A stretch of DNA of 63,929 bases, the filler included, from Hausera hauseri (lineage: Eukaryota), in assembly GCA_046269625.1 (NCBI GenBank). It is 13 parts of 13 records of this genome, joined end to end, with 100 filler letters (N's around TTAATTAATTAA, not from the genome) between each part and the next. Parts side by side here need not be neighbours in the genome. Positions count along the whole stretch, not along the records: positions 13,846 to 18,509 come from JBJURY010484465.1; 12 more parts are not named here. One strand, given 5' to 3'. The notes under the pieces were generated by a model. That model was not told where the DNA came from and did no database searches. It worked only from the letters and a program-made list of their open reading frames with translations. This document shows, piece by piece, positions 4,722 to 62,500 of the stretch (its first letter is position 1; the number at the start of each line of letters is the position of its first letter). The position numbers and the translations under genes are program-made.

Positions 4722-6375
4722 TGATAATCACTAAATGTTTTAGCTGCAGTGTATGAAAAAAATCCTTTTCCCTTAATGATGTCAGATGGGAAAGCCGTTT
4801 CTGTCAAATTGGTATTTATCTAAGTTGCAAGCCAAAGTCTTAAGTGAAGCCGGTAAAAATTGCAACAAGTTTAGAAATCGAATAGAAACGGACTTTTTAA
4901 ATGAACATTGTATATTTGCCCACAAGGTTAAAAATTTCTCTGTCGTTTGTGGAATAACATTTAATTTCCAACTGCGGAATTTACTCAATGCGTGTTTTAA
5001 AATATGATGAAGATCATATCCACACAAATTGTGAAAAATAACAGGTAAATTGTATCTGATCTGTCATGTTAAGTTACATTTGTTACAAGCAGGGCCTAAG
5101 AATTTACCTCTAACATGGCAGTGATCCCTAACAAATTGAGAACCAGTTTCATGACAGAGGTAACATGATGTAGCTTTTTTAAACCTATACCATTTAGCTG
5201 AATTTAACTGGATCATCGGTTTTTTTAGCATTCTCATATCATGGGAAAACTAGGGTTTTAACAATTTCCTCTAAACATGCCAGAAACTCAACTATAGAAT
5301 TTTCACCTCAAAATTGCCTATATTCAATACATGTTGATGAAACTAGTAAAAGACCGGCTGCAGCAGGAAATGAATATGTTTAACCTTATCGTCAGTGCAA
5401 AGAACCAATTCAAAGTCAGTATATACGACAAAAAAAGGACTAATAGATTTTGACCAGTCCTTAAATTCGCAAAACTTATTTTCGGGCATTTTGTATAAAG
5501 TCATACACTTGGAAACAGACATGCACATTGGCAAATGTTTAGTGTAAGCAGTGTCTAGCCTAAAGCCGTGTAAACATTTGTCACACCAATGTATACATTG
5601 AATGCGTAATTTCATACTGTTCATATTTAATAGTCGCTTGAGGTTGGGAAAAGCAACATAGTGAAAGTGATCATTATTCTCCAGAATTAGCAAGTTTACT
5701 ATAGCACCATTCGGATTTTTGCTGCAATACAAAATATCAACAAATGGGTTTTCACTATGTCCTCATTAAAATCCACATCATCCTCCTCATTAAACAAAAG
5801 ACTTTAATTGATAACTGTGGATTCTGCCTCTCAAATTTACCTATGTTGCATATTTTCACCGACATATCATCTACAGAATATTTCAGCTTGCTTAAATAAA
5901 AAATGTAATTGCTAACTCTACACCTATTAATGTCAATAGAAGAATACTTGGCGACTGCAAGAATGGAGTATAAGAAACACAGATTGTCGTTATTCTGTAC
6001 ATTAACAACAGCCGTTGCATTTCGTAAGGCTTCAGGTGTTGGAATTTAGGGCTTATCAGCCAAGTAGGATAGTGGGCTTATTTTAACTATATGAAATCCG
6101 TATTTCAGAATCTTAACTATTTTCCACCCACTACCCATTTTAGCAAAGTTATCTATTTTCTCATGTAAATTATCGGCTACAGATTGTGGAAAAGATTGCT
6201 CATAAGGCACGGCTCGTTGAGAAATATAAGCTTCCTTAGTGTCGCCCTCAGCATTCTCAAACAGAATTTCAATACCGTACTGAACCTTACAAGAAGAAAA
6301 TCGAGAAATGTACAAGTCAAAAGTAGTCAAAATTTCCTCAAGTGGTCGAGTAGAAATAAGAAGTTCGGGTGCCAC
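4722..6375 (-). pseudogene. polB: Polinton/Maverick protein-primed DNA polymerase B, N-terminal half (EndoVII-like insert, exonuclease II motif); truncated by contig end
   Basis: Manual translation across stops and frameshifts: KMGSGWKI; AVVNVQNNDNLCFLYSI; VNLLILENNDHFHYV; HWCDKCLHGF; FVVYTDFE; SCYLCH...VRDHCHVRGKFLGPACNKCNL; VIFHNLCGYDLHHI; IRFLNLLQFLPASLKTLA. Confidence 0.92.
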
Positions 6376-6925
6376 ATCAAAACAAAGATTAACATAATTA
6401 TTGCAAACAACAGATTGTACATCGAGTCTTATCTATTGTCCAATCATTTTAATCATCGATTGATTGTTTCATGACAGTCTTCTTATTTTATTTGATTGTC
6501 CGCTTAATTGGTTGCCGTTGTTGTTGAAGGGATAATGTTGTTGGCAATTGTTGATCTGCTACAAATTGTCTGGCCATGTTTATCATTTCTTTGTGTTCTC
6601 AAACGATAGTTTTTTTCGGTTTCTTGAAGTATAAGATGATGTTGATGTTTTTGCCGAAATTCATGGAATTGTAAACTGGAAAAAACTTCACAGTTTGGAC
6701 ATATAGAAAATTGGCACCCGCTGATTTTTGGGCCATAGTATTTTGACACTGTTTCTTCACATGTTTCTGGCGAATTAACATCAGCAGTACAATAATTGAA
6801 ATTGCAAATCTAAAATGTGTTATTAAATTAAACACAATAATGAATAGTAATATACCATTTTTAGCAAGTTGAATCGCATTTCGAAAAAAAAGTAATTTTA
6901 ACATTTTATTTATAGTAATAATCAG

Positions 6926-9075: not shown

Positions 9076-11333
9076 CGTCAGAAGAGGCAAATATCGTATC
9101 TGACCACATTTAATTTTGAAATTAAGCATCTAAACGGAGTCGACAATTTAGTAGCCTACTTTTTGTCGCAATCGGTCAGCTCGATTGATTTTACACAAAT
9201 CTTCCTTCAATCCAAACTTCAACAAAACCAGCCACCTCCTGACATCCATAAATTTTTTAAATCTTGCAAAACCATCGATGGTGTAGCCTTTGCACCTCCA
9301 AACCTAATAATCCTAAAGTCATCCTTTCTGAATCGCTTCAAAAAGAAGCATTCAACAGCATCTATTCGTTGCATCATTCCGGTGCCAAGGCCACTTTTCG
9401 ACTCTTACAACGCCAAGTAGTACGGCCGTCGATGCGCTCTGACGTGCAGGCACGGGTTAGGAAATGTGTGGCATGCCAAAAATACAAAGTTACAAAGCAC
9501 TTAAAGCCACCACTGTATCATTTTTCCTGCACGTCTAGTTTTGAATCTGTTCACATTGATCTTGTAGGCCCATTACCGTTAGACAGAAACCATCAGTTCA
9601 TTCTCACAATGATGGACCGTTCCTCGCGATGGCCAGAGGCTGTCCCGGTTCGGAGCACCAACACAGAAACAATCGCAGAAGTTTTCATCCGCACTTGGAT
9701 CAGCAGCTTTGGATCACCTCGCAACATCATTTCGGACCAAGGCCCACAGTTCAAATCCAACCTGTTTAAAACTCTTGTCAATCGATTGGGAATTAACCAC
9801 ATTCACAAGTCACCATATAATCCTCAATCGAATGGCCTTCTCGAACGCTTTCACCGAACGATGAAAACGTCTCTCAAAATCCTTGCTTAGTCCAATCGCA
9901 GTTGGACTACACTCTTTCCGTACGTTCTGCTTGGCTGGCGGAACACACTATCAATTTCTACAGGCTGTTCGCATGCAGAAGCATTATTTGTTACTTCTAT
10001 TAGATCATTATTCGAGCTGGCTGAGCTGGACAATATTCCTACAGATGAAGCCATACAGACGGCTCAGAGACACTTCATCGACATAAGCAAAGACTCATTT
10101 TGTAGACTATTATACGGAAATAAACCTTACACGCCCGACGATATATATACTGCCAAGTTCGTATGGCTGAACAATCAGATGCCGTGTGGTTTTCAACCTC
10201 AGTATGTTGGCCCTTACAAGGTAATTCGTTTACTCTCTCAAAACATCATCATTCTCAAGGACAACAAAGAAGTAACAGTCCACGTCATCAACGCCAATCC
10301 AGCTTTCTTCATTGACGACCCGTCTCCCATCGAAACCACTTTTCCACTAACATCTTTGCACGACGTGCAGCAATCCAACAAGTCAACTTCCATCGCTGCT
10401 CAATTTCTTAATCAACTTTTACCTACATTTTCTCCCAAAACTTCTGCTTCAATTTCTTCTGACAATTCAGTCTCCTTTTCCCCATCCGATTTTGCACCTT
10501 TAAGCCTTCTAACACCTCCTCCATCCCCTGGTGACAACTTGCTTTCTCCCTTTGCAACACGTCCTCCGCCAAATACCTCTTCGACTTCACCAATCTCTTC
10601 ATTCTCTAGCTGCCTTCCGTTTTGTCCCTCTTCTCCGTCTTCTATCTTTCTTTTTCTCCTTACACGCCTTCCTAATCTTCGGCGCTATCTTCGTCCCTGT
10701 CTTCTCACACATCGTCTTTTACCACTTTCATTTTCGCTTCACAACTTCCTCCTCTCTCTGCTTCTATCCCCATCTCTTTTCCTCTCGCCATTACTACCTC
10801 TGTTTCATCTTCCACTTCCACTCTTTTGCCTGATAAAATTCCAAATTCTACTCCAATATTTGTCTATCCTCTTTTATCCGCCACTACACCTCTTTTCAGC
10901 CCTTTGTCTTCAAACGCTTTGTTAAATACCTTTAACCATCCGTCTCCAACAATCTTTCCTCCTCCTTCACCTTCTTCTTCTCTATATTCTGACTCATCTT
11001 CGCACGACACATAACTCAAAACAAAATCTGATAATTTTTTCCCCATCTTCAAACTCTGCAAGCAAACACAGAGTCACATTTAGCAAATGTAGCAGGGAAA
11101 AATCAGTAGAACACACCCAACGTCTTGTCCACACTAAGACCACCTGACACATACATTTTTCCGTTTAGCGCTTGTTTCTTTCAGTCTGTTTTAATTTTTA
11201 TAGTTTTCTTTTTGTCACGGGAAGAGGGGTGATGTGATGCCCACAGCGGCCGATACCCTTTGGCCCATTTGACTGGGCACGTCCGGGCGTCCGTTGCTGT
11301 CGCGTCGGATACTTAGTCGGGTCAGACTCCCCA
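9076..11333 (+). mobile_element. Ty3/Gypsy LTR retrotransposon 3' part (RNase H end, integrase, long 3' region, PPT, 3' LTR); degenerate; same family as 59590-63370
   Basis: HHSGAKAT...CVACQK zinc finger; VHIDLVGPLP; ISDQGPQF; PYNPQSNGLLERFHR; YVGPYKV; PPT GGGAAGAGGGG at 11219; TG...CA LTR-like segment at 11233-11333. Confidence 0.93.
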
Positions 11334-11675: not shown

Positions 11676-12324
11676 ATGGCTGGGTTTGATCAAGGAGGAG
11701 TCTATTATTCACAACCAATAAGTGCTGAAAACGATTCAGAAAGTTCTCCACGTTCTATTCTAACTAAGTCAAAGTTTAATAAATTTATTAGAACTTTCAA
11801 ATATGGCTCATTTGACTATGTTTATTTAGATGTATTGAAACGCAATACAAACAAAAAATTACTCGATTCTCATAGATTTGGATGATTTGTGTAAATTTGG
11901 TGATAGGTTGTACAACCGTCTAGTATCTAAACCCGTTGCATATTTGCTTTTTCTGGAGGAAGTCGTCAATGCTATTGTCGATAAAGTAACGAAACCAAGA
12001 TTAGACGACACCAAAATACCGAGTATTCAAATACTTTTGAAATGGAACGCAAAACCCGACAGTTTACGAAATCTTGAATCTAAAAATGTAGCCCGATTAG
12101 TAAAGAGTTCAGGAATCTACATTGCATCATCGGATATTCAATCTAAAGCTGTTACACCAACATTGCAATGCCGTGGTTGTCGACAATATTTACCTAATAT
12201 TAACGTTAAAAGTGGTCTGAACGGTTATGTATTACCACGCAAGTGCACTGCTGCAACTGCTAATGTGAGAGTTGGTGTTCATTCTGCAATAAATCCGTGT
12301 CCGGTGGATCCGTATTTTATGTAA
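11676..12324 (+). pseudogene. MCM5: MCM5 N-terminal fragment with a frameshift near an A-run (~11860)
   Basis: MAGFDQGGVYYS...FNKFIRTF...DLDDLCKF...VTKPR...IQILLK...LRNLES..VARLVK..GI...LQCRGCR...GLNGYVLPRKC...CPVDPYF matches the MCM5 N-domain and Zn finger. No downstream AAA+ exons are recognisable in the contig. Confidence 0.9.
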
Positions 12325-13492
12325 ATATAAATTTATGCACTGTTTAAATATTCAAAAAAAAATTATTCAGGTGAACTTCTTGAATTTATAATCTGCTATT
12401 GTAAAACGATTTCAAAAATTTTAATTATAACAATTTTCGCTTTCATTCTTCATAATGAACAGTTTATTTTCTTTTTGATTTGAAGGATATATTTATTACA
12501 TGCGAAGTTATAAAATGACAGAGGTTTGGGATTATTCATTCTACTATCAAATTCATACCATCCCATCTTTCTTCGTGATTCAACTGAAAACAAGAGGGAT
12601 GGTTCTGATGGTGACAAAATTGTGTGGAACTGAATTATGTGCAGTTGATTTATTTTTCGTAAAAAAGGAAACAAGCAACGTCTGAATCGCGGCCAAAACA
12701 TGATATGGACACTGTCCTTTCTCTTACCTCCTAGCTCAATATCTTGAAACACTAAATGGGACTTCAGAAATTTTTGGAGCCAATAACCCATGCGAAGAAT
12801 CCATAAGATTCCTATTGAGTTTAAGGGACTCAAAGATCGACTGGAATACCATTGAGGAAGTAATATCAAACCATTCACGATCGAACGTTGAAGAAATAGA
12901 TCATGATATAATCCAGCCTTTGTACACAACAGTAAAATAATCATCTGCAATGTCGCCTATCAATTCTGATGCAACATACAACGAAAAAGCATCCTATACT
13001 TCTCCACCATGCTCTACTCCGATTCCAATGACTTCTAATGAATACCAATTACACAGCAATGTAGAACTCAACGAATACCTACCGGAAGATCAACTGATAA
13101 CAACGTACAACTATGCAGCTCAAAACACTGACTGAACAATGTCGTTCAATAGAATTCTTAGGGAAGATGGAAAACGACGTCAGTTTTATATTCTAGAATT
13201 AAAGCAGCCAAAGGAAGTTAGACCGAACTGTTCATACAATGAAATTTATAAAAAAGCGGGCGACATCTTAAAGACGTGTCCAACATCAAAACCCGCATTA
13301 AAGAAATCATTGAAATGACAATACATTGACTCAAGTCGTCTTTACAAGAATATTGCAAAACGATGGTGAAAACGTCAAACGGCGCATAGTTTGAAACAAT
13401 TTCAAGAAATGCGGCTTAAAACGAAGTGCCTAAAGATTAAAGCTAATGTTGTCCTCGCCGATTATCACTAACACGTCACAAAGATATATTGT

Positions 13493-13745
13493 ATGATGAT
13501 ACAAAGTATGAAACATCGGGAGATACTATTTCTTGACGAAACGGGATTCAACTTACAGACGTCAACGTCATACGGTTATGCCAAAGCCAATAAAGCAGAT
13601 ATATCCTACAGACCTGCCAATAGGGGAAAAATGTCTCCGTCTGAGCCATTATTTCTGAAAAGCGGTTGTCATTACCATATGATTATTGGGGCATTCAATG
13701 CTAAGAAGTTTGTCGATTTCTTGGACAATTGTTGCAGCACACATG
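13493..13745 (+). pseudogene. IS630/Tc1-like DDE transposase fragment
   Basis: ILFLDETGFNL...YGYA...PANRGK...IIGAFNAKKFVDFL; truncated by the contig end. Confidence 0.8.
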
Positions 13746-13845: not shown

Positions 13846-14260
13846 GCTTGGCTTATGCAATTTTGTTGAGGCATTCTTATCAATAGATCGGTAATTATAT
13901 AGGCTTGGGCTCCAGGTAGATTGTAATAAAATATTTGAAACTTGTATCGGCAGGTTTGTCCGAAATCCAAATCGCAACATTTTGTATGAATTCCGTACGG
14001 AAAATCGCATGTTCTTATTATGAATCTAGTTACAAATATTATTTGAAATTTTACATGGTTCTGAATAGGTTCCCTCGCTTCGAACCATGCACACGGTTTG
14101 CTCTCATCCATATCTTATACTCTAAGTGATTGCAAATTTTGGATATCCTTTCCTCTTGCCGTATACTGTAATTTTTCGGTTTGAGTTATCGATTTCACAT
14201 TCGGTACATACGAAGCGATTAATGATAAGGCGAGGACTATTTGCACATACGTTACCGGTC
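13846..14260 (-). pseudogene. Putative envelope-like glycoprotein N-terminus, in frame with integrase
   Basis: After RYNLRS comes a hydrophobic signal-like stretch VTYVQIVLALSLIASYVPNVKS, then a Cys-containing region (KPCAW, TCDF, KCCDLDFGQTCR) in the same frame past one TAA at 14115-14117. Confidence 0.5.
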
Positions 14261-17200
14261 TAGCCGTTATGATCGATGTTTTCCTTTCTCTGTTTGTATG
14301 CTCATATTTTGCTCTGCAAGAACGTAAATTGTAGCGTTTACTTGGTCTTATCTCGGTTTTAACTACTCTCTGAATCGATGTGACCTCTTCCTTGCCATTT
14401 TTATTTATATAAACTGTGGTCGGTGTAATTTTAGTAACTTCATACGGCCCTCTACCGGTTCTGGTAAGTTTAATAGATGTACCTTTCTTGGCCACTGAAT
14501 AGTGTACGTAAACCCAACTTCCTGGTTCTAGGTAGTGTGGTTTAGCCTTCTTGTAGTATTGTTTCATAAATTGTTCCTGGTAATCTTTATATAATACCTT
14601 GGCTATTTCCCAACACTTGTATAATCTCAATTGTAATACTTCTACAAAGGTCTGCTCCAAATTTTCCGGTTTTGTTCTGTAGGGAATCCATCCTAAATCT
14701 GTAGGCAGTACAGCTTCTCTGCCGTACATTATAAAAACGGAATGAATCCTGTCACAGGATGTGGGGTAGTGTTAATGGCGAATTGTGTACCTTCTAAGAA
14801 CTTGTCCCAGTCTTGCTGGTCCTTTGCGACAACTGTTGATAAGATTCGTGTAACTGTCACGTTCATCCGTTCAACCATTCCATTGCATTGGGGGTGATAA
14901 GCCGTGGTAGTTAGATGTTCAATTTCGAAAATTTTGGTAATTTTGTCCAACAATTTGCTTGTAAAGTTTCTCCCTCGGTCTGCCAAATTTGTTTTGGCGA
15001 TCCGTATCTGCAATAATCTTCCGGACTACTACTTCTGCCAGAGTCTCGGCCTTTTGGTAAATTAACGCTATTAGTTCAACAAAATAAGTTAATCGATTTA
15101 CACAAGTCAAAATATACTTCTTGTTTTTGTGGGTCGTAGGTAATGGTACTACGATATCCATGGACATTTCCTGCATTTGTCTATCCGGCACGCTGATGGG
15201 TGTAAGTTTGGCGATGTAGTTTTTCACTTTTCTTTGTTTGGTTGCGCATACTTCGCAAGCGTTCACCCAATTCCTCACATCGATGTAAACGGTCGGCCAA
15301 TAATATTTATTTAAGATTCTTTCCAAGGTCTTTTTCCTCGACATGTATCGGGCTAAGTACGAATCATGCTCGGCCATCAGTACCTCTGTACGCAATCCCT
15401 TTAGTATGACTACCAATTTTCGTCCTTTCCGTTTGTAGTACAACACACTTTCATGGTTCAAGTCTCCCGTGAAGTGGTATTTGTGGTTGTATCTTCGTAG
15501 GTGTTTTTGTAACTGTTGACCCTTTAGTGTTTTGCTGGTATCAACGAACTCAATAACTTGTTGTATAACTTTGTCTTTTCTTTGTTGGACTGAAATCTTT
15601 AATGTCTTATCTAAAATAAGGGTCCGTTGCCTCTCCACTAATTCTTCGAAGTGGGTTTTCTTAATTACCTTAGCCGCGTTAATTTTTGTCTTAAGTCTAG
15701 AGTGCATTGACATCGACATTTTTATTTTCAGGTTTGTATTGGAATTCGATATTATACCGTGAGATCTCCTCGATCCTTCTGTTAAGTGTACAGGTTAGAT
15801 TATTTGCCCTACCTTTTAAGGTAGTAACTGCCTTATGATCGGTAACGATCACAATCCTTTGTCCATTAACGTACACGTTCAAATGTCGTAATGCTTCCTT
15901 CACCGCTAGCGTTTCTAACTCCGTAACGGAATAGTTCTTATCTGCTTTCTTCAAGGAGCGTCCTCCATATGCAATCGGGTGTTCCAACTTTTCGTCTTCT
16001 CGTTTTTGGGCCTGTTCATATCCGATGCCTTCCCTAATGGCGTCCGTTTTTATTATGAACGGTAGGTTGAAGTCGGGATATCTTAAAACGGGTTCACCAG
16101 TTAGAATCTTTTTCATTTCATCGACGGCTTTCTGTTCGACATCGGTCCATTTCCATTTGATGCCTTTTTCAGTAAACGATACAAAGATGCATTTATCTTC
16201 GCGTTTTCTGGTACATAGGTAGCATAGTACCCATATAGCCCTAGCCAGTGTCTTAATTCCTTCAGATTCTGAGGTCCCATATAGTCCGATATCTTACTTA
16301 ATAGTGATTTATCCGATTTCGACCCCCCTTCTCCAACTATATGTCCAATGTACGACACGGCATTTTGAGCCCATTTGCACTTCTTTGGATTCAGTTTTAG
16401 TCCAGCTTGCTCCAGTCTCATGAGTGTACCTTCAATATCTTTTAAATGATTCGATTCTGTTTTCTGCGTAATCATGACGTCGTCCAAATAGGCAAATGCG
16501 TGCTCCAGTCCCATTAGCATCTTGTTTATCATGCGAGTAAAAATGACCGGTCCGGTAGTTATCCCAAATGGCATAACATTAAATTCGTATATACCACGTG
16601 TGTCTTAAATGCCGTTTTATAATAATCTTCCTTCTCTATCTCTACTTGCCAATATCCGGATTGTAAATCGTGCATGGTGAACCATTTAGCTCCCGAAAGA
16701 CTATCCAAGGCTTCCTTTACTGGTGGTAATGAGAAGGTGTCTTTCATCATAATTGTGTTTAACGCTTGGTAGTCGATACAAAATCGGTGCTTATCGGTAC
16801 CTTTTTTCTTAAACATAAGTATAAGCGAATACCAAGATTTATAGCTTGATCTTATTATGTCGGCCTTTAACAATTGTTAAACTTGCTTAGTTATTTCTGG
16901 CCTTAACGAGTGTGGAGGGGGTACCATTTCGGCATCTTTTGGTCCTCTAAATCTATTTCATCGTTGGACCCCGGCTTTTTCTTAAGTAGGATAGTGAGTC
17001 TTAAGGTTTTGGCACGGCCAATATCTTCATCTTTCGCGATAATCGAGTTATAGCGACAAAGTAATTCGTAAAATCGACAATATGATTCCGGTGAGAATTT
17101 AGTCTTGACGTGGGGTAAAAATTCGGCATTCTTATACTGTTTCTGTTTGATGGTAATTGATGAAACTCTATACGTGTGTCCCCAAGTGGTATTGGCATAC

Positions 17201-18509
17201 AGTTTGGTTGAAGTGGGCGCATTATTCGCCACTCTGATTGGTACGCGGCCTGTTGATACTCTTGTCAAAACATTGCTGAGTACAAGGTTTGGAATAAGCG
17301 ATTGCTTTGGTTCAAAATATACTGTCTGGTCGTCATCTTGACGTATTTGGGCATATATGAGTACTTCAGTTCTTGGTGGTATGTTTTCATTTACTGGAAT
17401 CCACACTTCTCCGAACTTTCTGTCTTTGGTGGTTTTAACCCATTTTAGTGGGCCAAGTTTTATCAACTTGTCTGCATTGAAATCGATTGCTATATTGGGT
17501 AGTTGTCTCAATAAGTCACATACTCACACTACATCATATCTTAATTGCTCCATTACTGAGAATTCATGATGGAAAGATTATCCCATTATGTAAATTTCCG
17601 GTTTCCAACGGAATTGACTTTTCGATGATTGTACGAAGGCTCCTACGCTTCATGGATCCGTTGTGGGAGGCGGATACAATTGTTTCCGTAGGAACTGTGG
17701 TATTGAATCATATTTTATCAGTGACATTTCAGATCCTGTGTCTATTACCGCATATACTTCCCAGTATTCCAACTGAATTTTTGCAAGTGGTCTTCCTTCG
17801 ATTATCATACCGTAATAATTTGGTGCTACTCGAGAGTGTCGGATCGCGGAAACTTTGTAACCGTTAATGGTAACCTCCATAGTTCCAACGGGATGGTCGA
17901 TTAACTGTCTCAGTTCTCCCATAGGGCACAATTCATTATTCCCACCATTCGTGTTTTATATTCCTTGGTTTCTAACTGGCGGCTGGATATCTTGGTTCCG
18001 GAGATTGTGTGGCTCACGGCTTCTGGCAATTATTGACTGCGTTTCGCTTGGTCTAGGTACTCTAGGTGAATAGATTATACCATGATCGTCGACCGCTGAG
18101 CGACAATGTAAAATAAAGGGTTTTTCTACTTTACAGAACACTCCATAGTGCTTCGTTCTTTCGTAAGAATCCTCTAGACAATCTTCATATACAGGTGCCA
18201 TCGGCGGCAGTATTGGTAATGGTAATTTCACAACAGAATAATTTCTATGTCTGTTCGACTTAGGTATAACGTCTCCTCCTTTAGGCTCGTCATTATCTGA
18301 GTTATTTCTTCGTACTTTAGTATTTATAAAATTTCGCTTGAATAGGTACCTTCTTTTACGATTTCAATTTTGATAGCCTACATGCTGTTCAACCTCAGTT
18401 TTCCATCTACTTTCTTCGTAATCCTTTAAGATTTTGCCGAAGGGCGTGATAATTGCCGTCAAAATTTTGCACGAAAATCCTGTCAAGGTGAATATCTCGT
18501 ATCCATTTA
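13846..18509 (-). mobile_element. Ty3/Gypsy retrotransposon: gag end, protease, RT, RNase H, integrase, env-like ORF; many frameshifts
   Basis: AVIDTGSEMSLI (PR); RFCIDYQALN, DLQSGYWQV, MPFG, AYLDDV (RT); IKTDA, NYSVTELETLAV, VTDHK (RH); YYWP...CEVC, DRGRNF, TAYHPQCNGMVER, GPYEV (IN). Confidence 0.95.
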
Positions 18510-35134: not shown

Positions 35135-36292
35135 TGATAGTAGGTAGAAGTGAGCTCTCCACCACACTTCTCTGATTGGTCCGCCGACCAGTTTTCCCCA
35201 CTTGATTGGCTATTCTGAACATTTCACTAAGATTTTCGCACGACCCCTCCCCCCAGAAAATGAGGTCGAGCAGAGGTTCGGGTCAGGTGATATCGATAGC
35301 GCGTGACAAGGGGAGCAAAAGTTAACAAAGGTGCGGCTTACAGAAATGTAAGCCAGAGGCGTTAGAAGAGGAAGAAGCAAAACAGGAAATGCTCCACGTG
35401 TAACAAGAAACATGTTGCTGGCACTGCGAAAATGTGTACAAGGGGTAAATCGTTATTAGCGATTGAAATGGCACTGTTGCAAGTCGGTCAGACCATGGGA
35501 ACATGGGGAAAAATTGATGCGAAAATTTCAAACGGGTAAAATTTCCCAATGTTCAAGTCTGCCGATTGTGGAAATTGGTCTAATACATTGCCCATAAACT
35601 GAGGAAATTTTCACATTATAGCCGCCTCACTATCAGACCAATGGATCGGGGTGAAAAATGCAATCAAACGAACGAACGAACCAACCAATCAAAAAAGCGC
35701 AATGTTAAAGTCAAAATCATGATAGTAGGTAGAAGTGTCCTCTCCTAATTACTTCCCAAAAAGTGTTCAGATTGAGCTGGAAACCAGTTTTCCTTACCTA
35801 TCTCGCAATTCTGAGCATTTCATGTTTTGTGGTCGGAGGCCCCCAGCCGGAAGCACATGTCACATGTCGCACATGTCACCGGCGGAAATCGGTGGAACTG
35901 CATGAGGCGAGAAAAATTTTCTAGCGCGGCGAGTCGAAAATACTACTGGGCGGCGATAGAAGCAAAAGAAGCAAAACAGGAAATGTTTTATGAGAAACAA
36001 GACACGCGTTACGAATTGCGCAATGTTTGGTGCAAATGTCAAATCAATGTCTGGGAATCGAATGCGCACAATTTCCACGTTGTCTGACCATAGGAACATG
36101 CGGAAAATTGATGGGGAAATTTCAAATTCTAAAAATTTTCCATTGTTCAAGTCTGCTGGTTGTGTAAATGGGCTGAGCACGTAGCCCATCAGTAGTTGAG
36201 TATTTCCTATTGTAGCCGCCTCACGATCAGACCAATGGATCCCGGTGGAATATGCAAGAAAAAACATTGTTAAAAAGTCAAAATCATGATGA
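35135..36292. repeat. Diverged ~585-bp tandem duplication next to the Polinton capsid module
   Basis: Both units start TGATAGTAGGTAGAAGTG (AGTAGG at 35139 and 35724). They share GAAGCAAAACAGGAAATG, TGTTCAAGTCTGC, TAGCCGCCTCAC, ATCAGACCAATGGATC and AAGTCAAAATCATGAT. Confidence 0.85.
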
Positions 36293-36389
36293 TCATCATA
36301 ATCATAATTATCATTGTTGTAATTGATGATTGCGTTCGTTCGTTCGTTCGTTTTGTAAAAAGTCGTGAATTTTATTTTGTACGATGAAC

Positions 36390-36910
36390 TCATAATTGAG
36401 TACTACTACTCCCAAAGAGAATGATTGTGACATCATAATATTTGTCATGATTTGTTCGCTCTTTGGTACACAAAACAACAGTAATAAAATAATACATATT
36501 TCGCAAAAGTGATTGTAATGTTAGCCACAATAAGAAGTAATGTCCACATAGTATAGCCATTGGATGTTGATAATGAACTCGATTATATTCTGAACGGTAT
36601 GATGATGATTGTCGTTCAATTTGAGAAACTAATGATGACGGATAGTAAAATCCGAGCGGATCGAATTTTCAGACGACGTTGGTCGGATGGTGGACGTACA
36701 CAGCAATCCAATGTTCGCATGGCAACGATGAAGTGTGTGTATTGACAATAAAGCCGCCAGTTTGTCGTGAATCATGCGGCACAAAGTCCAGTGGAAACAC
36801 GCCACGAAATTTCACGCCCAAGAGCAGTTTTCCTTAGTGACTGAGCTCGGTGGAGCTAAATTTGAAAAATGTGATTTAAGTATAATAGTAATAGCAATAA
36901 ATAACTTTAT
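36390..36910 (-). pseudogene. Polinton adenain-like cysteine protease (PRO) with a predicted 50-nt intron at 36856-36905
   Basis: FRGVFPLDFVP...FIVNTHTSSLPCEHWIAVYV...FDPLG...YQHPMAILCGHY carries the His/Asp/Gln/Cys catalytic residues. Start is mutated to ATA; two internal stops. Confidence 0.9.
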
Positions 36911-36938
36911 AGTACGACGGTGAGAAAGCGGATTTTAT

Positions 36939-38154
36939 TTATACAATGACGGTTCCGTTTTTCGTTATTTCAACATCCGCATCAAATACACCGTAAATGT
37001 ATATCACGGTAGATTGCTCCAACGCTTTAACAAAGTCAACCTCCAGTCGTAGGTTTTCCTGCTGAGGTAGTTGAGTCTGTTCAACGTCATAATCCGGAGC
37101 CAGGACAAAAGTGAAGAATGGGTAGGTGGACTTAACCAAATCCATCGATATGCCATTGTTGATGTTTTTGTTCAGCAAACCCATGTTGCGCCCAATAGAT
37201 TGCATATGTGCAAACAATCATTAAACTCAAAGTCTTGTTTGTACATCTCAACGAAATCCGCATTCCGACCCAAACTTATGTAATTCACATTGCTATGGGT
37301 AAACGTTTCCGAATCGGTGGTATAACTGCCCGTTTGTTGAACAGTCGTTTACAATGTAACGAGCACAAATTTTGGCAATCGGATGTCGCCAAACAGTACA
37401 TCTTTATTAAACATAGTTGAAACTTTGGGTATGGTGTAAAAGACGAGTTCTGTGCGTTATATCGGGTAACATGCATTTTGCGTTTCCAAGCCCAATTGGT
37501 GTCCCATGAGCACAGATGGTTCTACCTTTACACGAGGTACGTATAATCGTGCCTCGGTAATTTTCAGTATGGGGTTAAGATTTGCAACTGCAGTTTTCAA
37601 ACAAGACTCGCTGCGTTTGAGCCGAATCATGGCCTTAACACCGGGCAATAGGTATGTCGGCTGACCGAAAGTCAAAGTACAGCGGTCCACACATTTTAAG
37701 TGCTTTTGATTCTGCCACTCGTCTGATGGTTTGCTGCATTGGTGTCAAATCGGATGGTTTTCGTCAAATGAGTCGTTTTCGTGTCAGTACTATAATTCAG
37801 GGCCGTTTCAATGAGTGCTTTGATACTGTATAAACTGGTATTGCCTTTGATTTTGACGCTGTTTAGAGTCAGTGAAGCCTCCTGGAACAGTGAGAGGAAA
37901 AGGTAATTGGTTGGTGTGACAGTGTCTGTTGGAGCGAGAACCGTTGATGCATCCTTTTTAACAATGACTTTTACATGGAGTAGCGTATTGTTCAAATCCA
38001 GGTATTTATTGTCCGATGTTATAATGTTGAATTGAATGTCTGTTATCATCCGTTGAAACCGAATCAACGGGTAGATTTCTTCAAATGCCTCATTGTCAAT
38101 AACGTGTGGCGCGCCTTTGTCAAATATACACAATTCAGATTTTGCAGATGCCAT
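36939..38154 (-). pseudogene. Polinton major capsid protein (PY, double jelly roll), frameshifted
   Basis: KSELCIF...EEIYPL...IQFNI...YLDLNNTLLHVKV...PTNYLFLSLF...IETALNYS; QPTYLLPGV..MIRLKRS...ARLYVPRVKVEP...YPI; FFTFVLAPD...NLRLEVDF...YGVFD. Confidence 0.92.
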
Positions 38155-38177
38155 TTGTCTACAAATCAATCAATTAA

Positions 38178-38498
38178 TCAATCGAAAATCATACGACGAC
38201 GACGTTTGTTTGTAGTTGATGAGCTCGATGATGCTGTATGGTGTTTTCCCATCAAATCACTGCTAGCGAATTGTTTTTTGACTGATTCAACGACTCCCGG
38301 TGCAGCGCTTTTTATTTCCGACAACAGGTACGTCCTGTGCTGTTTTTGCCGCCACGGCTCCAATACGCTTCAACATCGGAAAGGCTAAACGTGCCAATAT
38401 ACGCAACCATCAAGAGCCATACTGTTTACCAACGAAATAGGCAGTTCACCGCCTTGCCGGGGTTTACTGTAAATTGAAACGATTTCAGAATCAATCAT
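38178..38498 (-). pseudogene. Polinton small basic core-like protein (pVII-like), frameshifted
   Basis: MIDSEIVSIYSKPRQGGELP/YFVGKQYGS*WLRILARLAFPMLKRIGAVAAK...KRRRRMIFD; lies between penton and MCP. Confidence 0.7.
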
Positions 38499-38531
38499 GT
38501 TGTTGTTCTAGGATTCGACGGAAATGAAACG

Positions 38532-39357
38532 TTAGACTGGTTGTGGTACCGTACGGAAATTCAATAAGGTAGATCGTGTAACATCGAATATTCACTTGAA
38601 CATTGTTTATAGATGTAGATGCCACAGGTAGGTGACATTGTCGCTAGCAGTATACTTGCTGCTTTCCGGATAAATTGCACGGAGTAACGGTACACGTACT
38701 CCATCGACCAAAATCGGTTCGGTGACGTTCACGTAAATGTACATTTGACTTAGACTAGTTTTCAGTTTGGGTTTAAGTGTTACATGTGCTGCCGCCGCCG
38801 ACGATGCCTCAAACCGCTGTTTTTCAAAACCCTATACCATGGCCAAAGCTTTGTCCAATGAAATGTCGACAATATCCTTAGCCGTTCAAATTTAATATAA
38901 CAATTTGCATCTGACTCGAAAACTGTAAAAATCTTGTACTTTTGATTTGAAGAAGTGTTGACAGAGATGTGCTACAGATTCGTAATAGACATGGTCTCCA
39001 ATCGATGCGTATGACGTTGGCACCCTTTCTGCTGTATAGGTAAATTTCACCGTTGTCTGGTAATATACGGGACTCAATCTTGGACCAACTACATATTCAC
39101 TTTTATTATGTTTACATTTGTACTCTGTATTTTTGAATCCAAATTTCTGCGCCATCTCAGAGGACTCAAAGGTAAATTCAAAATCTGCCATAAAATGTAA
39201 GTTTTCTAAAATAAAAACACCGATTTTGCCGTGTGAACCGTAATTTGCTTCGGTCGTGCAAATGGCCGATTCTCCAACTATTATTTTATTGTTAGTAAGT
39301 GTCAGAGGACAAGAATGTGTTTTGGTTTCAGTAACAGTCTTGTTGTACGTTATTTTC
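38532..39357 (-). pseudogene. Polinton minor capsid/penton (PX), 3' part
   Basis: QMYIYVNVTEPILVDGVRVPLLRAI and terminal LNFR motifs, directly upstream of core and MCP. Confidence 0.75.
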
Positions 39358-39874: not shown

Positions 39875-42562
39875 TTATACGTCACGAGTCTTTTGTAGAT
39901 TATTAATTACGATTGTATTCTTTACGCACATTATATGGAAATTTACCAGAATTTTATATTTTTCCATCTCGTTAAATATTTCTCGGTTCTGAACAGCCAT
40001 TTCTTGAGCATGCTGGGTTTCTTTCGATAAAGCAATGTTCAGTTTTTTCATTTTGAGAATAGCAGTATCATATTGTTCTTTAAATTTCTTCAATTCATCC
40101 AACTGGCACTGGACATTATCCAGAACGAAGATCTGTTTTTCAAGCTTTTCTTTTTGCGCCCGGGTAGAGTCAAATTCAGTTAGAGATTTCTGCCAATCCG
40201 TATGGAGTGATTTGTATTTATTCGTCAATGTTTGGGTCTCTGAGTCTTTATCGAGAACTGCTCTTTCCAATCGAACCTTTTTTTCTCTAATACTTTCAAT
40301 TTCCTTATGCTGATTCTCATTCAATATCCGCAAACGATCAATTGATTTAATTTGCTGTTGTTCGTTGTCATGACAAGTAATCAACTCCACTAAATGAGCA
40401 TTATTCAACATCTGTTCTCGTTCGTCAAATATTCTAACTTTTTACTCCAATTCTTTTAATTGATTCTCCAGTTTCTCTCGTTCGCCATCCGAACATTTCA
40501 GTGTTATATAGTCGTTGGATTTGCTCATTTAAACATTCAATTGATGTCAGGTACTTTTTAATTTCAACATCAGTCGATTCTTTCAGTTCGATCAAACACT
40601 TTTCCGTTTCACTTTTGCTCGATTTGGAATCATTCAATTTGGTTTAAAGACTGTTGTTTGAACATTTTAAATTGGCCACATTTTTGTTGATTTTCTAATT
40701 CGATTCGAAGTCTTACTTTCGGAGAATGAATCACATAACTGTTGTTGGCACGTATTCATATCCATCTCAATTCGGATAAATTTATCACCGAGTTGCTGCA
40801 GTCGCTTTGCCATATTTTTCTCTTCGGTATTTTTCCGTTTAAGTTGTGCACCAAGTTCTGATATTCTCTTCTCCTTCGTTTCCAGCGTAATTTGACAAGA
40901 ATCCAGTTTACTCAACAAATTCTCGCAATCTTTTTCTTTACTTTTCAACTTAGTTTCACAATCGGATAGTTTCTGATTATGAGTTTTTTTATCTTTCACC
41001 AATTTCATCTCGTTTTTCACTTGCCCGTCATCTAATAGTGCACTGGAATATTGATTACGTAAATTTTCGTTTTCATCAGACGGATAGTTCATTTGTTTAC
41101 GTAAGATCCCACTATCATCTTTTCCCAACAAATTCTTGTTTATTCTATCAATAATGTTATCTGTTTCAGCAATTTCATGTTCAAACGAATCTCGACGTTC
41201 AATTTCAATTTCTACTTTACCAATAGCTTCCGAAATTTGTTGAATTTTACGTGTATAACACGATGCATTTGATTCCAATTCGGATAATTTCAAATGAATA
41301 AATCCGACTTTCTCGTCGTATTTTATTGCGGCATGTGAAATCAATTCTCTGAAATCGGCATTCTCATCGCGAATTTCAAATCGTTCTCGAATGAACTCAA
41401 CAAATTCCGATGTAACAAACTGTTGCACTGAATAATCATTCCACCGCAATCATTTCGTTCATAATCTAACAAAGCCGAACACAACTTTTCGATTTCGATT
41501 AATTTCTCTTCGACATCTTTATCACGAATTTGTCGATAGTCTTCAACACCCCATTCGGCTTCTCGACATTCTTCAACTAAATACGTTTCTTTCTCTTCGT
41601 GTCTCTGTCGCCAATCCATTAAATCACTCTGTAATTGATCTCGCTCTTTTTCCAATGCCCGAGAAATATTTCGACTGTCTTCAATCATCTGTTCAAGTCG
41701 CTTAATTTGGTCATCTTTCACCATTAATAAATCGTTCGTTTTTTTTAAATTCGAATGTAAACTTACGTTTTTGTCTTTCTGTTTTTCAACGATACTTTCT
41801 AAATTTTTTACCAATTCCACCCTGAAGAACATTTTTCGACTCAATTTGTAATAACAATAAATCGGCTAATTCGTTTGAAAATGAAGAGATTTTTGACAAT
41901 CGATTAAAAATCTACAGAAACATTGACAGAATAATTACGTTTCATTAATTTTTGACACTTCAAACAGATGATAAGGTAGAGAGAATAAGCATATTTTCGT
42001 CTCGTCAATTAGAAAATAATCCGGCAACTTATTCTCATCAGAATTGACTTTGGCCAATTTATTCTTTAATCCTTCAATTTCAATTGTCAGACGATTGTCT
42101 TTCTCTTTTCTTACGGACAGAATTTGAAATCACATTTAAATCCATAGTTCCATCAATAGACAAACTCAAATCAACATAAGAATCATTCGTATCAATAGAA
42201 ACAATGCCAGATACTAATGATTCCAATTCATTTATTCGTTTGGATAAATTGTCCACAGTAACATTTTTGCTATTATTTGACTCCTGTAAACAACCAATAT
42301 TTTCCGATAATTCAATTTGTCTATCATAGGCGATTTTACAATTATCAACCTTTTCATGGAGCATATGTAGCTGTTTTTCATAGTACGGACTACATTCCTT
42401 TTTAACAATAGGTCGTTCTGAGGGTGGATCGAGCATGTACATCGTTTTGAAATATCCTATTATGTTCAATAATGTTTTGAGTGAATGTAAAATAACAGCG
42501 GTTGATCGATTCAGAAATTCATTAAACGCATCGTAAAATCTACCATAATTGAACAAGAGAAA
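39875..42562 (-). pseudogene. Long coiled-coil protein coding region, broken by frameshifts and stops
   Basis: Consecutive E/K/L/Q-rich heptad ORFs: 42080.., 41341-41844, 40667-41449, 40434-40637, 39875-40411. Confidence 0.7.
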
Positions 42563-44739
42563 ATTGGAAGCAATGCAGCTGCATTGACCCGCATCGTCAG
42601 GCGTAATATCCATTATTGTTAAATAATAGTTTGGAAAATCATTTATTATTTTCATTCGTTTTCTTGAGTCTTTTTGACTAAGTGTTTCCCCATTCCGTGT
42701 CCATAGGATTTTTGGTTCAGGTTCAGTGACAAGTCTACAATTAAATCGAATACTGTCGCCTGAGCATAAGTTAGCAGGTTTCGGCTTTTTGATGAACATC
42801 GGTGCAATGCAGCAGGATTCTTCCAATTGGTCTAATGAAACTTGGCTGGATGGAATAGCACTCGCTTGTTTTATATGAAGTCTACCGTCACTCTTTACGT
42901 AGCCCATATCGTTCGCCACTTTAATTGAATACTTTCCAACATGTTTTATTGAAACAGACGGAATTGTTAGCGCGAAGAAAGTCTCATGTGACCACTGAAT
43001 AAATTCCGAATCTTCTATCGGTATTTCTTGATCTTCAAAGTACCAAACCGATTTGGTAACACCACACTTTTCAATTTCATTTTCAAATTTACGAGTCATC
43101 TTCCTTTTCTATAGTTATATCTCGTAATGGATTGACCATTCTTGGTGATATTAAACACTGAAATATATCTTTCGATTGGACCTTAACAATTCTTTCTCTG
43201 ACATGAACATCAATATCGACAGTCTCATTATCTACTTGAATAGAATATGTACCACAATCCTTTAGTTGAATATTTGACAATAACAAATTATAACATTTCG
43301 GTTGCGTTACTAATGTCAAATTCGATTGATCTTCATTAATAGGCACACCATCTCGTAGCCATATTGGTTTACCAAGGGAATTAGTAGGAATTTCTGTTGA
43401 CACAGATAATTGTAATTCTTCGCCTTCAACAAGATCTACTTCTTCCACAGTACATGATAATAAGTTCCATTTCTTTCCATCTTCCTTCTCGTCTTCAATA
43501 AATGATACCATAACATCAATCGAATTCTTTTCACCATTTTCATTCACTACATTGCAGGTATACATACCTTTATGTAAGTTAGGAATAATATTTTCGATAT
43601 ATAAATCGGTAAAAGAACTCTCTGGATTATACGGACCTTCACATAATTTTCCATTATGTAACCATTCGATCGTGGGATTTTTGGGATTAATAATCTCTAC
43701 GGTAATTATCAAAGGTTTAGCCGACGATGCTTTGATATTTGTCGAAGAAACAATCAGCTTCAACACGTCATCATGGTCTTTTTCTGAAGACTGTTCAGAA
43801 ACATTCGATTCAACTGTCAGAACAAACTCCACAACACGAGATGATTTGTCGCTAACGTACATACAACATTTATACACTGGGCTATCATTGAGTTCCGCAG
43901 TATCCTTTTGAAAAATAAATGTACCGTCAACAAAACTTGACTTAAATTTAAAATTTGTGTCTACCAGTTTGTTGTCAATTGACCATAAGGCATGAGTTTC
44001 CTGTGGTTTTGCAGAAACGTTTAAACACAGTTTTTGCCCTTCTTTAACCGTTACGACAACTGTCTCAATTGATGCCGTTTCCATAGCTTTTGATTGAATA
44101 TCTAAGGTAGTTTTTGCATAGAGGACGTTTCCATTTTTACATTCAATTTTGCACTCATATATCCCTTTGCGTTTCGCACTGCAGTTGAAAATTTTAAGTT
44201 CAGCAATACGCCCATTTTCTACAATATCTGTAATAATTTCACGAGACATTTCAAGTATTTCAGAATTATACCACCAGGTAATGCTGAAGTGAGTGAGAGG
44301 ACACTGGACAAAAGCTCTTAAAATAACCGATTCACCTTCTTTAACGGAGTAGAGCTCTTTTTCGAACTTGATACTACCTTTTGCCGAATCATTGATTCCA
44401 ACTACTTTAATCTGAATTCCAACTTCCACAGATAATTCCTTATTAACAAAACCCTTGCACAGGTAAGAACCCTCATCTTGTTTGACTATTTTATCTATCA
44501 ATAACATTGAAATGTTGTTGTTAAATTTTTCAATCATTCTAATATCTCGAATTAGCTTTTCATCATCGGCGGTTTTCATCGTCCACTTAATATCCTTTTC
44601 CAAAAATCCCTCAACTTCCACACATAACGTCACGCAATCGCCTTCTGACGCAACTATGTTACTTTCTAAAGGATATAAATTTCTTTTAATTTTTTTGACG
44701 TTCAAAAAACATTTTCCCAAAACGGCGGCTAATCCAGAT
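42563..44739 (-). pseudogene. Titin/obscurin-like tandem I-set immunoglobulin domains (~7), frameshift near 43095
   Basis: Repeated V.EG..V.L.C / W..NG / D.G.Y.C patterns: DEGSYLC, KGIYEC, KGMYTC, DCGTYSI, VGKYSIKVAN, APMFIKKP...PEPKILWTRNG...DAGQCSCIASN. Confidence 0.85.
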
Positions 44740-59589: not shown

Positions 59590-62500
59590 AATTTTTACTA
59601 CGGCAACAAATACGATATTGCCAACTGCGTGGCACCTATTACTAATAGCACAGCTGCCAACACCATATTTAACACAAACATTTTGCATCAAATACCACCT
59701 AGTCACAACAACTTTTCTATAACTTATACCTCAACTGCATCCAGTCACGATACATCGACACCATCGGATAATTTTTCATCCTTGTCTTCTGATCTAGAAC
59801 AATACATTTCGTCTTCCTGCACGCGTCTGTTGCAGAAGGATAAATCATTTGCACCTCCTCAATCCACCTTTCGTCACATAGTAACTGCACATAAAAGACC
59901 AATACGGCAAAAGGTTCGCCCGATGTCGCCTCGACGCAGACAAGCAGTGGGGGCTGAGTTTCTCGACCTTGAAATATCAGGCATAATCAGAAAATCCAAT
60001 TCCCCCCGGTCTTCACCATTGCATGTAGTTCCAAAAAATGGCACCTTTCGCCCATGCGGTAATTACCGACAAATAACACCATGACAACAATGGATGCCTA
60101 CTCTTTACCATTAATCAACGATATTCTACACAGACTTCATGCTTTGACCATCTTTTCCTGCATTGATCTACACAAAGCATACTACCAAATTCCGGTGGCC
60201 ACAGAAAACATTCCAAAAACGGCTGTCATTACACCTTTTGGCCTTTTTGAATACCTCTTCATGCCTTTTAAACTCCGTAGCGCGTCCCAGATCTTCTAAA
60301 GGCATATCGATACAGTCCTATCAGGCTTAAACTTCGCCTATCCCTACATCGATGATATCTTAATCGCATCATCTTCGTCCAAACAACACTCTGAACACTT
60401 ACGTTTAATCATCCAGCGCTTACACCAAAACAATTTGCAAATTAACTTCTCCAAATGCTCCTTTTTCAACATAAGGCCAACTTCCTAGGACATGTTATTA
60501 GCTCCTCCGGACATTCACCTCAGCCAAACCACATCACACAGCTAAAATCATACAACTACCATGTACATAAACAGAGATGCGTTCTTTCCTCGGAACCTTG
60601 CACTTTATTCATAATGTCGTTCCGCACTGTTCTACTCTAACCGCCCCATTTGCATCACTAAGCTCTGGCAAGAAGAAACAGCCTATTTAGTGGACCGGCA
60701 ATTTAGTCAATGTTTTCGATCGTCTCAAAAACAATTTGAAAACTGTGGAAATACTGGCCTATCCAGACTCCCATGCAGAACTTTTCTTAACTACCGACGC
60801 ATCTACAACAGCTGCAAGTGCTGTCCTCCATCAAGTTAAAAATGGATCCAATGAGCCATTGGAATCCATTTCTCGAAAATTCACAGCACAAGAGCAAAGA
60901 TATTTTACCATTAATGGAGAATTGTTTGCAATGGTCCTTGCCGTCAAACACTTCAAACGTCTGCTAACTGCACGAACTTTCACAACACAAACAGACCACA
61001 AGCCCTTGCTCCAAATTCTCACCATGAAATCGCCTTCTCCGTGTCAGGAGAGGCAAATATCGCATTTGTCAACGTTTAATTTTGTAACTAAATATCTAAA
61101 TGGATTCGACAATTTAGTAGTTGACTTTTTGTTCCGATCGGTCAGCTCGATTAACTTTACACCAATTTTTCCTCAATCCAAATTTCAGCAAAACCAGCTA
61201 TCTCCTGACATCCTTAAATCATTTAAGTCGTGCTAAACCATCGACGGTGTGGTCTTCGACACCTCCAAACCTAATAATCTCAAATCATTCTTTCTGAGTC
61301 GCTTCAAAAGGAAGCCTTCTACAGCGTACATTCGTTTCATCACCGTGGTGCCAAGTCCACTGTTCGACTCTTGCAACGCCAAGTAGTATGACCGTCGATG
61401 CGCTCTGACGTGCCCTCATGGGTTAGGCAGTGTGTGGCATGCCAAAAATACAAAGTTACTAAGCATCTAAAGCCACCACTATTTTATTTTCCTGCACGTC
61501 TCGTTTCGAATCTGTTCACATTGATCTTGTAGGCCCATTACCCTTAGACAACGGTCATTAGTTCATCCTTACAATGATGGACCGTTCCTCGCGATGGCCA
61601 GAGGCTGTCCCGCTTCGGAGCACCAACATAGAAACCATTGCAGATGTTTTCATCCGCACTTGGATCAGCAGGTTTGGATCACCTCGGCACATCATTTCGG
61701 ACTAAGGCCCACAGTTCGAATCCAACCTGTTTAAAGCTCCTGCTAATCGATTGGGAATTAACCACATTCACACACCCGTATATCATCCCCAGTCAAACGG
61801 CCTTCTTTAACGCTTTCATCGAATAATAAAAACGTCTCTTAAAATTCTTGCTGAGTCCAATCGCAATTGGACTACACTCCTTCCTTGCGTTCTGCTTGGC
61901 TGACGGAACACACCATTTACTTCTACAGGCTGTTCGTCTGCAGAAGCATTATTTGGCACTTCCATCAGATCATTATTCGAGCTAACTGAGCTGGACAATA
62001 CTCCTACAGACAAAACCATACAAGCGGCACACAGACACTTCGTTGAGATTAGCAAAGACTCATTTCGCAGATTGTTACACGCAAATAAACCCTACATACC
62101 CGACGATTTATATACTGACAAGTTTATTTGGTTAAAGAATCAGACGCCGTGTAGATTTCAACCACAGTATGTCGGCCCTTACAAAGTAATTCGCTTACAC
62201 TCCAATAACATCATTCTCAAAGACGAGAAAGAAGTAACCGTTCACATCAATAATGCTAAACCGGCCTTTTTTATTGACGACACGTCTCCCGTTGAAACTA
62301 CGTCGCCACCAACATCTCTGGGCAACGCGCAGCAATCCAACAACTCACCTTCCATCTCTGCTCAATGTCTTAAGCCACTCTCCCTTACGTCTTCTCCCAA
62401 AACTTCCACTTCAATTTCTTCTCACAATTCAGCCTCTTTCTCCCCATCCGATTCTGCACCTTTAATCCTTTCACCACCTCCTTCGTCTCCTCACAACAAC

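Follow-up and report, generated by a model that had tools for sequence, protein, structure and literature searches.

A decayed Gypsy element of Hausera hauseri carries, behind its integrase, a predicted tandem-FN3 membrane protein that is probably a captured attachment or decoy protein rather than a fusogen

Background

The retrotransposons closest to the locus described here combine pol with genes for membrane proteins or with host-like genes, and are outlined below as far as the available parts of the cited papers describe them. Errantiviruses possess a Gypsy pol followed by a gene that encodes a signal, an ectodomain and a transmembrane (TM) segment, and a survey of env genes in invertebrate Ty3/gypsy elements, seeded with F-type and gB-type baits, reports these two types only (PMC13524379). 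In nematode belpaoviruses, such as Atlas virus, the membrane protein ends a single Gag-Pol-Env frame (PMC9094657). Bdelloid LTR elements have captured host-like genes downstream of pol, and their non-env ORF3 cargo includes a GDSL esterase, a DEDDy exonuclease and small TM ORFs (PMC5408684). Planarian Burro combines host-like domains and env within one Gypsy polyprotein and is given as the exception to the rule that env of Gypsy elements is a separate ORF (PMC6431247). Atypical membrane proteins of Gypsy elements, linked to soma-to-germline transfer, are Env of Oikopleura Tor (PMC4402516) and sORF2 of the MDG1 group (PMC11952523).

Here we describe a locus in a window (the whole stretch of DNA that was analysed, 63,929 nucleotides with filler, from assembly GCA_046269625.1) that consists of short contigs of an AT-rich genome joined by N spacers. 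The locus lies on the minus strand, at the low-coordinate end of the contig at 13846-18509 (JBJURY010484465.1). Behind the integrase of a decayed Gypsy copy, the contig encodes the beginning of a protein that, judging from structural models and with a probability of about 0.68, we take to be a tandem-FN3 type I membrane protein, likely captured from a host gene for a receptor or an adhesion protein and likely involved in attachment or acting as a decoy, and not a fusogen.

Results

A decayed Gypsy element

The features of the contig are, in the 5' to 3' order of the minus strand:

17650..17955, minus strand: aspartyl protease remnant with an IDTGS motif (Pfam RVP, E 0.0021, 18.7 bits where the curated cut-off is 20.7)
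16113..16876, minus strand: reverse transcriptase with YLDD, in two frames separated by a frame change (Pfam RVT_1, E 5.3e-09 and 9.7e-20)
15697..16293, minus strand: RNase H (Pfam RT_RNaseH_2, E 1.8e-28)
14735..15794, minus strand: integrase H2C2 zinc finger and core, with frame changes (Pfam Integrase_H2C2, E 4.3e-15; three-frame reading; tblastn with the Gypsy pol protein P0002)
14319..14771, minus strand: C-terminal part of the integrase (GPY at 14450-14442, RYNLRS at 14336-14319; tblastn with P0002 spans the region)
14265..14345, minus strand: in-frame linker, free of stops and of Met (28 open codons, a run with a chance of 0.13; about 5-7 other contigs span it)
14190..14264, minus strand: predicted cleavable signal peptide (hydrophobic core KD 2.55; 16 of 21 residues identical to residues 11-31 of the homolog P0003)
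14115..14117, minus strand: TAA, a lesion of the window copy (non-stop codon in 34 contigs; P0003 open there)
13848..14132, minus strand: first predicted FN3-like beta-sandwich, reaching the contig end (31% identical to domain 1 of P0003; seven strands in a model of pLDDT 59.5; FN3 matches)

One end of the contig lies inside a gag-like region and the other inside the extra ORF. The domains follow the Gypsy order PR-RT-RH-IN, the protease match falling below the Pfam cut-off, and the H2C2 finger is accompanied by the GPY/F motif, which is a trait of Gypsy elements. BEL/Pao features are absent: the reverse transcriptase has YLDD, not YVDN, and none of the 9 pieces that were searched matches a Pao-type Pfam family.

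Upstream of the extra ORF, pol contains several stops and shifts frame at least 4 times, and position 15011 in the integrase is a one-letter indel of the window copy relative to 6 of 6 contigs. The copy in the window is dead and decayed, and because pol is broken by these stops and frame changes, it yields no polyprotein today. No further copy of the same Gypsy family was found elsewhere within the window.

Between protease and reverse transcriptase, at 16903-17523 (minus strand), there is a 206-aa beta-rich stretch with no Pfam match, which we find reminiscent of the dUTPase-like insert in some Gypsy pol genes. Two copies of another Gypsy family are present at 9076-11320 and 61043-63358 (plus strand; 84% and 74% alike), in which the integrase frame continues into a long, low-complexity tail rich in Ser, Pro, Thr and Leu, with a purine tract behind it at about 11219-11230. 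The window also contains an MCM5-like N-terminal fragment at 11680-12330 (plus strand; MCM_N, MCM_OB), a pseudogene or an assembly error whose frame changes close to a run of A and which does not clearly continue, a DDE_3 transposase fragment at 13472-13744 (plus strand), and a titin-like gene at 39875-44738 (minus strand) that has I-set repeats and exons for coiled coils. The MCM fragment and, above all, the titin-like gene indicate an animal genome. ORF pieces at 5343-6432 and 35860-39356 (minus strand) have no Pfam match at E 0.001; by eye, we would liken them to Polinton/Maverick polymerase and capsid genes.

The extra ORF and its single stop

A single minus-strand frame, 14771-13848, runs through the integrase C-terminus, GPY, RYNLRS, the linker, the signal-like stretch VTYVQIVLALSLIASYVPNVKS and the TAA at 14115-14117 into 89 open codons that extend to the contig end. 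This continuity, including the single TAA and the Cys-rich region behind it, was described in the first-pass annotation and is borne out here: the 89 residues past the TAA include 6 Cys, 4 of which align with Cys of P0003. The interval given for the feature, 13846..14400, encloses the ORF, although GPY falls just outside it. From 14261 onwards, the frame contains 1 stop in 138 codons, which has a chance of 0.0005 at this base composition, compared with 14 and 3 stops in the remaining two frames over the same 138 codons. These other two frames are rejected as the main frame past the signal because the homology and the third-position bias described below both belong to the integrase frame.

No other 11-mer among the 308 residues of the frame is as hydrophobic as the signal-like stretch, and the putative signal has Pro at -5 and small residues at -3 and -1 in the window ORF and in P0003 alike. 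Small residues at the latter two positions are what the -3/-1 rule for signal cleavage describes.

The first-pass annotation had raised the question whether the TAA is a sense codon in other copies or a conserved readthrough site. The former is the case: 34 contigs, accounting for 573.5 of 619.3 in summed depth, carry a non-stop codon at this position, and P0003 is open there, so that a conserved, programmed readthrough site is ruled out. The purine runs at 14291-14279 and 14157-14146 were considered as a 3' PPT and rejected because they lie inside the conserved ORF.

A single homolog with the layout of a type I membrane protein

The search of 1.84 billion representatives returned a single match, P0003 (479 aa, E 1.3e-18, 31% identity), aligned across the TAA; P0003 is a singleton encoded on a 4,939-base contig. 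When used as a query, P0003 retrieved only itself among 3340 candidates. Searches for short homologs (30-90 aa) gave 0 of 12 candidates, metagenome contigs 0 loci from 130 and 197 pattern matches, and viral contigs 0 loci from 101 pattern matches. The PDB sequence search gave no match and PHROG no informative one, and a search for long fused forms, which is weak evidence against a fusion of the extra ORF to pol, gave 1 weak, integrase-only match among 589 candidates of 540-2000 aa.

P0003 consists of a signal stretch directly preceded by Met at 1, 6 and 10, a predicted long helix, three beta domains of about 90 aa, a Thr-rich spacer (11 of 23 residues Ser or Thr), one TM helix and a short tail. 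The TM helix corresponds to one strong hydropathy window (KD19 up to 2.26 at 424-435), and the tail of 25 residues includes 8 K/R and ends in YDRI. Four N-glycosylation sites are present. With a signal, one C-terminal TM helix and a basic tail, P0003 is predicted to be a type I membrane protein, an assignment that uses its hydropathy and structural model; the window itself holds the first domain, and the anchor is taken from P0003. The C-terminal TM anchor expected in the first-pass annotation is thus present in the homolog. The furin site R-x-K/R-R is absent from P0003, the sole RxxR being in the tail, and its ectodomain contains no internal hydrophobic stretch that could be a fusion peptide (KD15 maximum 0.65).

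Domains 1 and 2 of P0003 repeat each other (z 9.8) and share a four-Cys pattern, and the window domain matches both, with z 31 for domain 1 and z 5.8 for domain 2. Domain 3 weakly matches domain 2 (z 2.7) and has no significant similarity to domain 1 (z -0.4) or the window domain (z -0.9).

Fold prediction points to FN3

The window domain was modelled with X at the stop and with P0003 as the only other alignment row. The resulting model is a seven-strand sandwich (pLDDT 59.5) which, although of low confidence, superposes on FN3-like domains over seven strands. In VIA, 29 of 50 rows are named FN3, fibronectin or monobody and 14 more are cytokine-receptor complexes. The FN3 matches have Z 6.9-8.3 over 77-92 residues, the best ones (Z 8.3, rmsd 3.2, 92 aligned; Z 8.1, rmsd 2.1, 77 aligned) being tied with many others, and Z of about 8 is near the level that the tool calls common. 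In Foldseek, too, the first rank goes to an FN3 domain (E 0.008, TMq 0.65; 0.59-0.66 for the best-fitting FN3 domains), with no match at E 0.001 for either the window domain or the whole of P0003. With the whole P0003 model (pLDDT 46), tandem FN3 or cytokine-receptor chains make up 8 of the 10 highest Foldseek rows; VIA gives this model Z at most 6.5. Atlas, which uses sequence features, also places the FN3 clan in the lead, with low recognition and with scores of 0.83-0.88, which lie below 0.9. The Pfam fn3 profile does not match the window pieces or P0003 at E up to 1, and the WSxWS motif of class I cytokine receptors is absent. The FN3 fold is put forward as a prediction that several weak lines share.

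The similarity to fusogens anticipated in the first-pass annotation did not emerge: none of the fold searches with these weak models (pLDDT 46 and 59.5) lists a fusogen. The F-protein fold is absent from the listed matches, class II and III (gB, G) folds are absent from the top rows, and in BFVD no match reaches E 0.001 and the leading rows contain no fusogen. The repeats of about 90 aa argue against a class II or class III fusogen.

A multicopy family with a probably constrained ORF

The comparison contigs come from one public run, X1, which contains 46% of the sampled words of the contig and may be the source sample, and is therefore not independent of the window. The element is matched by 9,346 of the 15.5 million X1 contigs, 7,987 of them less than 95% alike; the Gypsy family is large, diverged and multicopy. 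To the 485 bp of 13846-14330, 450 contigs align, 227 of which are less than 90% alike. No indel occurs among the variable places listed for this stretch (best 40 of 53); in the comparison over the whole element, one-letter losses are listed at 13918 (2 contigs) and at 14283 (1 contig).

Past the TAA, third codon positions of the integrase frame account for 13 of 22 variable places (p 0.012), and in the mature part, with the stop codon excluded, for 17 of 28 (p 0.003), compared with 4 of 11 in the signal and linker; all these counts cover the best 40 of the 53 variable places in 13846-14330, and the test is rough because the places mix private changes of the window copy with subfamily differences. 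Thus, in agreement with the expectation that the ORF would be conserved among copies, the family is multicopy, with a third-position bias and no indel among the best 40 of 53 places, and our best reading is that the FN3 cargo ORF is kept under selection.

Two further observations concern this region. On the minus strand of 13846-14261, another frame has merely 3 stops per 138 codons, and the variable places past the TAA are distributed 1:8:13 over codon positions 1:2:3, an unusual excess of second over first positions. The excess could hint at an overlapping frame, but this is a post hoc test on small numbers. Within the extra ORF, conservation is highest in the signal-coding stretch, 14203-14253 (minus strand), where 16 of 21 residues are common to the window and P0003, as against about 30% identity overall. 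Summed contig depth, which is no copy number, is 9,700-30,800 over the signal stretch, 400-2,100 over the domain and 28-58 over the linker. A conserved signal could possibly reflect an RNA-level role or a fixed leader combined with a variable ectodomain.

Fused to pol or a separate ORF

We lean towards the extra ORF being fused to pol in the subfamily of the window copy. This copy has no Met from residue 69 to the signal. The few other contigs noted above that span the linker keep its register, with one exception, and the differences listed at or near it (best 40 of 53 variable places) do not create a stop. One divergent contig extends at least 93 letters on either side of 14272 and would therefore bridge the integrase end and the signal. 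The pol-env polyprotein of the first-pass annotation accordingly holds as an in-frame arrangement in the window copy, and likely in its subfamily, whereas the evidence for it stops short of the family as a whole.

A serious competitor, to which we would give somewhat less than even odds, is that the same FN3 cargo forms an independently started third ORF, expressed from a spliced or internally promoted mRNA, the in-frame junction being due to chance or local decay. The three Met right ahead of the P0003 signal fit this arrangement, but that start is a gene caller's choice on an unseen contig, and the window copy has no Met in the corresponding interval. Most contigs stop aligning at about 14263, with the depth falling from 385 to 28-58 in the linker, where an open run of 28 codons is not improbable by chance (0.13) and 1 contig lacks the letter at 14283. 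Furthermore, the kinds of change found among the 13 places beyond the 40 listed would turn 10 linker codons into a stop in one step. Against this, the 6 differences listed at or near the linker make no stop, and a stop common to the linker contigs should outrank a listed row that rests on 2 contigs. Precedent is on the side of a separate ORF, at least in the available parts of the sources: env of Gypsy elements is usually an ORF of its own (PMC6431247), and env of Tor is expressed by splicing or from an internal promoter (PMC4402516). Subfamilies may differ, and the two modes, polyprotein and separate start, can coexist. At about 14320-14334 (minus strand), within the RYNLRSC codons, there is a pyrimidine-rich run ending in CAG that could act as the splice acceptor of an ORF3 mRNA of its own, or may just reflect the codons.

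The strongest version of the fusion, namely that a single Pol-ORF3 polyprotein yields a signal-cleaved, host-derived triple-FN3 adhesin or decoy that replaces the envelope and steers particles between cells without a class I-III fusogen, we regard as doubtful.

Discussion

What the extra protein could be and do

The attachment or decoy function that we propose would likely aid spread or persistence of the element rather than membrane fusion. In a subfamily with the fusion, the ORF would form the tail of pol; the internal signal would thread the ectodomain into the ER, where signal peptidase would free the ectodomain, and the protease of the element would free the integrase. Otherwise, the extra ORF would be translated from its own start. 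The protein would reach the surface of the cell or of vesicles, with recycling through its YxxPhi tail, a motif that serves in recycling, and would bind a host surface molecule or ligand, helping particles to reach, or persist in, germ-line cells.

It is unlikely that the ORF encodes part of a true envelope, that is, a subunit of Ig/FN3 domains that binds a receptor, comparable to alphavirus E2 or phlebovirus Gn, the fusogen being encoded further downstream. Alphavirus E2 has three Ig-like domains, and the env-like position, type I topology and YxxPhi tail would all suit such a subunit; moreover, the contig ends at 13846, so that a later downstream ORF is possible. However, P0003 ends 25 residues past its anchor, with no second signal or fusogen, the best structural matches are cellular FN3 chains, and the faint alphavirus rows (prob 0.10 and 0.12) rank 31 and 48 with rmsd of about 30. 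Equally to be weighed is that a fragment of a host FN3 gene joined a dead element and has been copied passively, with no function for the element. The window copy is indeed dead, and P0003 could be a host gene, but the hundreds of divergent contigs, the gap-free alignments and the third-position bias make this quite unlikely, and the uninterrupted 479-codon frame of P0003 is what one expects of a retro-borne gene. The captured viral fusogen, of class I, II or III, that the first-pass annotation envisaged shares with our protein a signal, Cys pairs, an anchor and the position, and env genes of the F and gB types occur widely among invertebrate Ty3/gypsy elements as far as the available text goes (PMC13524379). 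Such a fusogen is nevertheless highly improbable given that P0003 has neither furin site nor fusion peptide, that its domains of about 90 aa are repeated, that there is no Pfam or PDB sequence match, and that P0003 and the window domain resemble tandem FN3.

Comparison with known systems

The tandem-FN3 reading sets this element apart from each of the systems outlined at the beginning. Compared with errantiviruses, the ectodomain is predicted tandem FN3, is devoid of furin site and fusion peptide, and is in frame with the integrase in the window copy; the word 'fibronectin' has 0 occurrences in the available text of the errantivirus survey (PMC13524379). Belpaoviruses differ in being BEL/Pao elements with YVDN in the reverse transcriptase and a class II Gn-Gc env, according to the available part of the description (PMC9094657), whereas here we find YLDD, GPY, Gypsy-type Pfam domains and an FN3-like cargo. 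Bdelloid ORF3 cargo is a different class of protein, 'fibronectin' occurring 0 times in the available text (PMC5408684). In Burro, env is F-like and located between gag and pol, with no FN3 named in the accessible portion of the report (PMC6431247). Tor Env is furin-cut and has a putative fusion motif (PMC4402516), and MDG1 sORF2 is a short FAST-like protein (PMC11952523); neither is described as FN3 in the parts of these papers that are available. Cleavage of a fused pol tail by signal peptidase is described, again within the available parts of the sources, for BEL/Pao-type frames and not behind a Gypsy integrase.

We found no report of an FN3 ORF in LTR elements in the literature, subscription papers, Repbase and supplements (including that of PMC13524379) aside, and FN3-type cargo in Gypsy elements is likely a new kind of retrotransposon cargo. 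If so, a receptor-like FN3 cargo would escape env surveys of Ty3/gypsy elements that seek F-type and gB-type proteins. The case also calls for caution, in that a signal, Cys residues and a TM segment behind pol need not mean a fusogen.

The predicted fold and the type I layout are those of FN3 receptors and adhesion proteins, such as cytokine receptors, LAR, DCC, NCAM and FNDC5. The C-x-W in strand B is a further feature that the extra ORF has in common with these proteins, from which it differs in an identity of only 10-15%, the missing WSxWS and a short tail without a signalling domain. If the tandem-FN3 reading is correct and the cargo is held under selection, the element would add a class of surface protein to those of retrotransposons. 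It would also suggest that they take receptor-type genes from their hosts, as large DNA viruses do, for use in attachment or as immune decoys.
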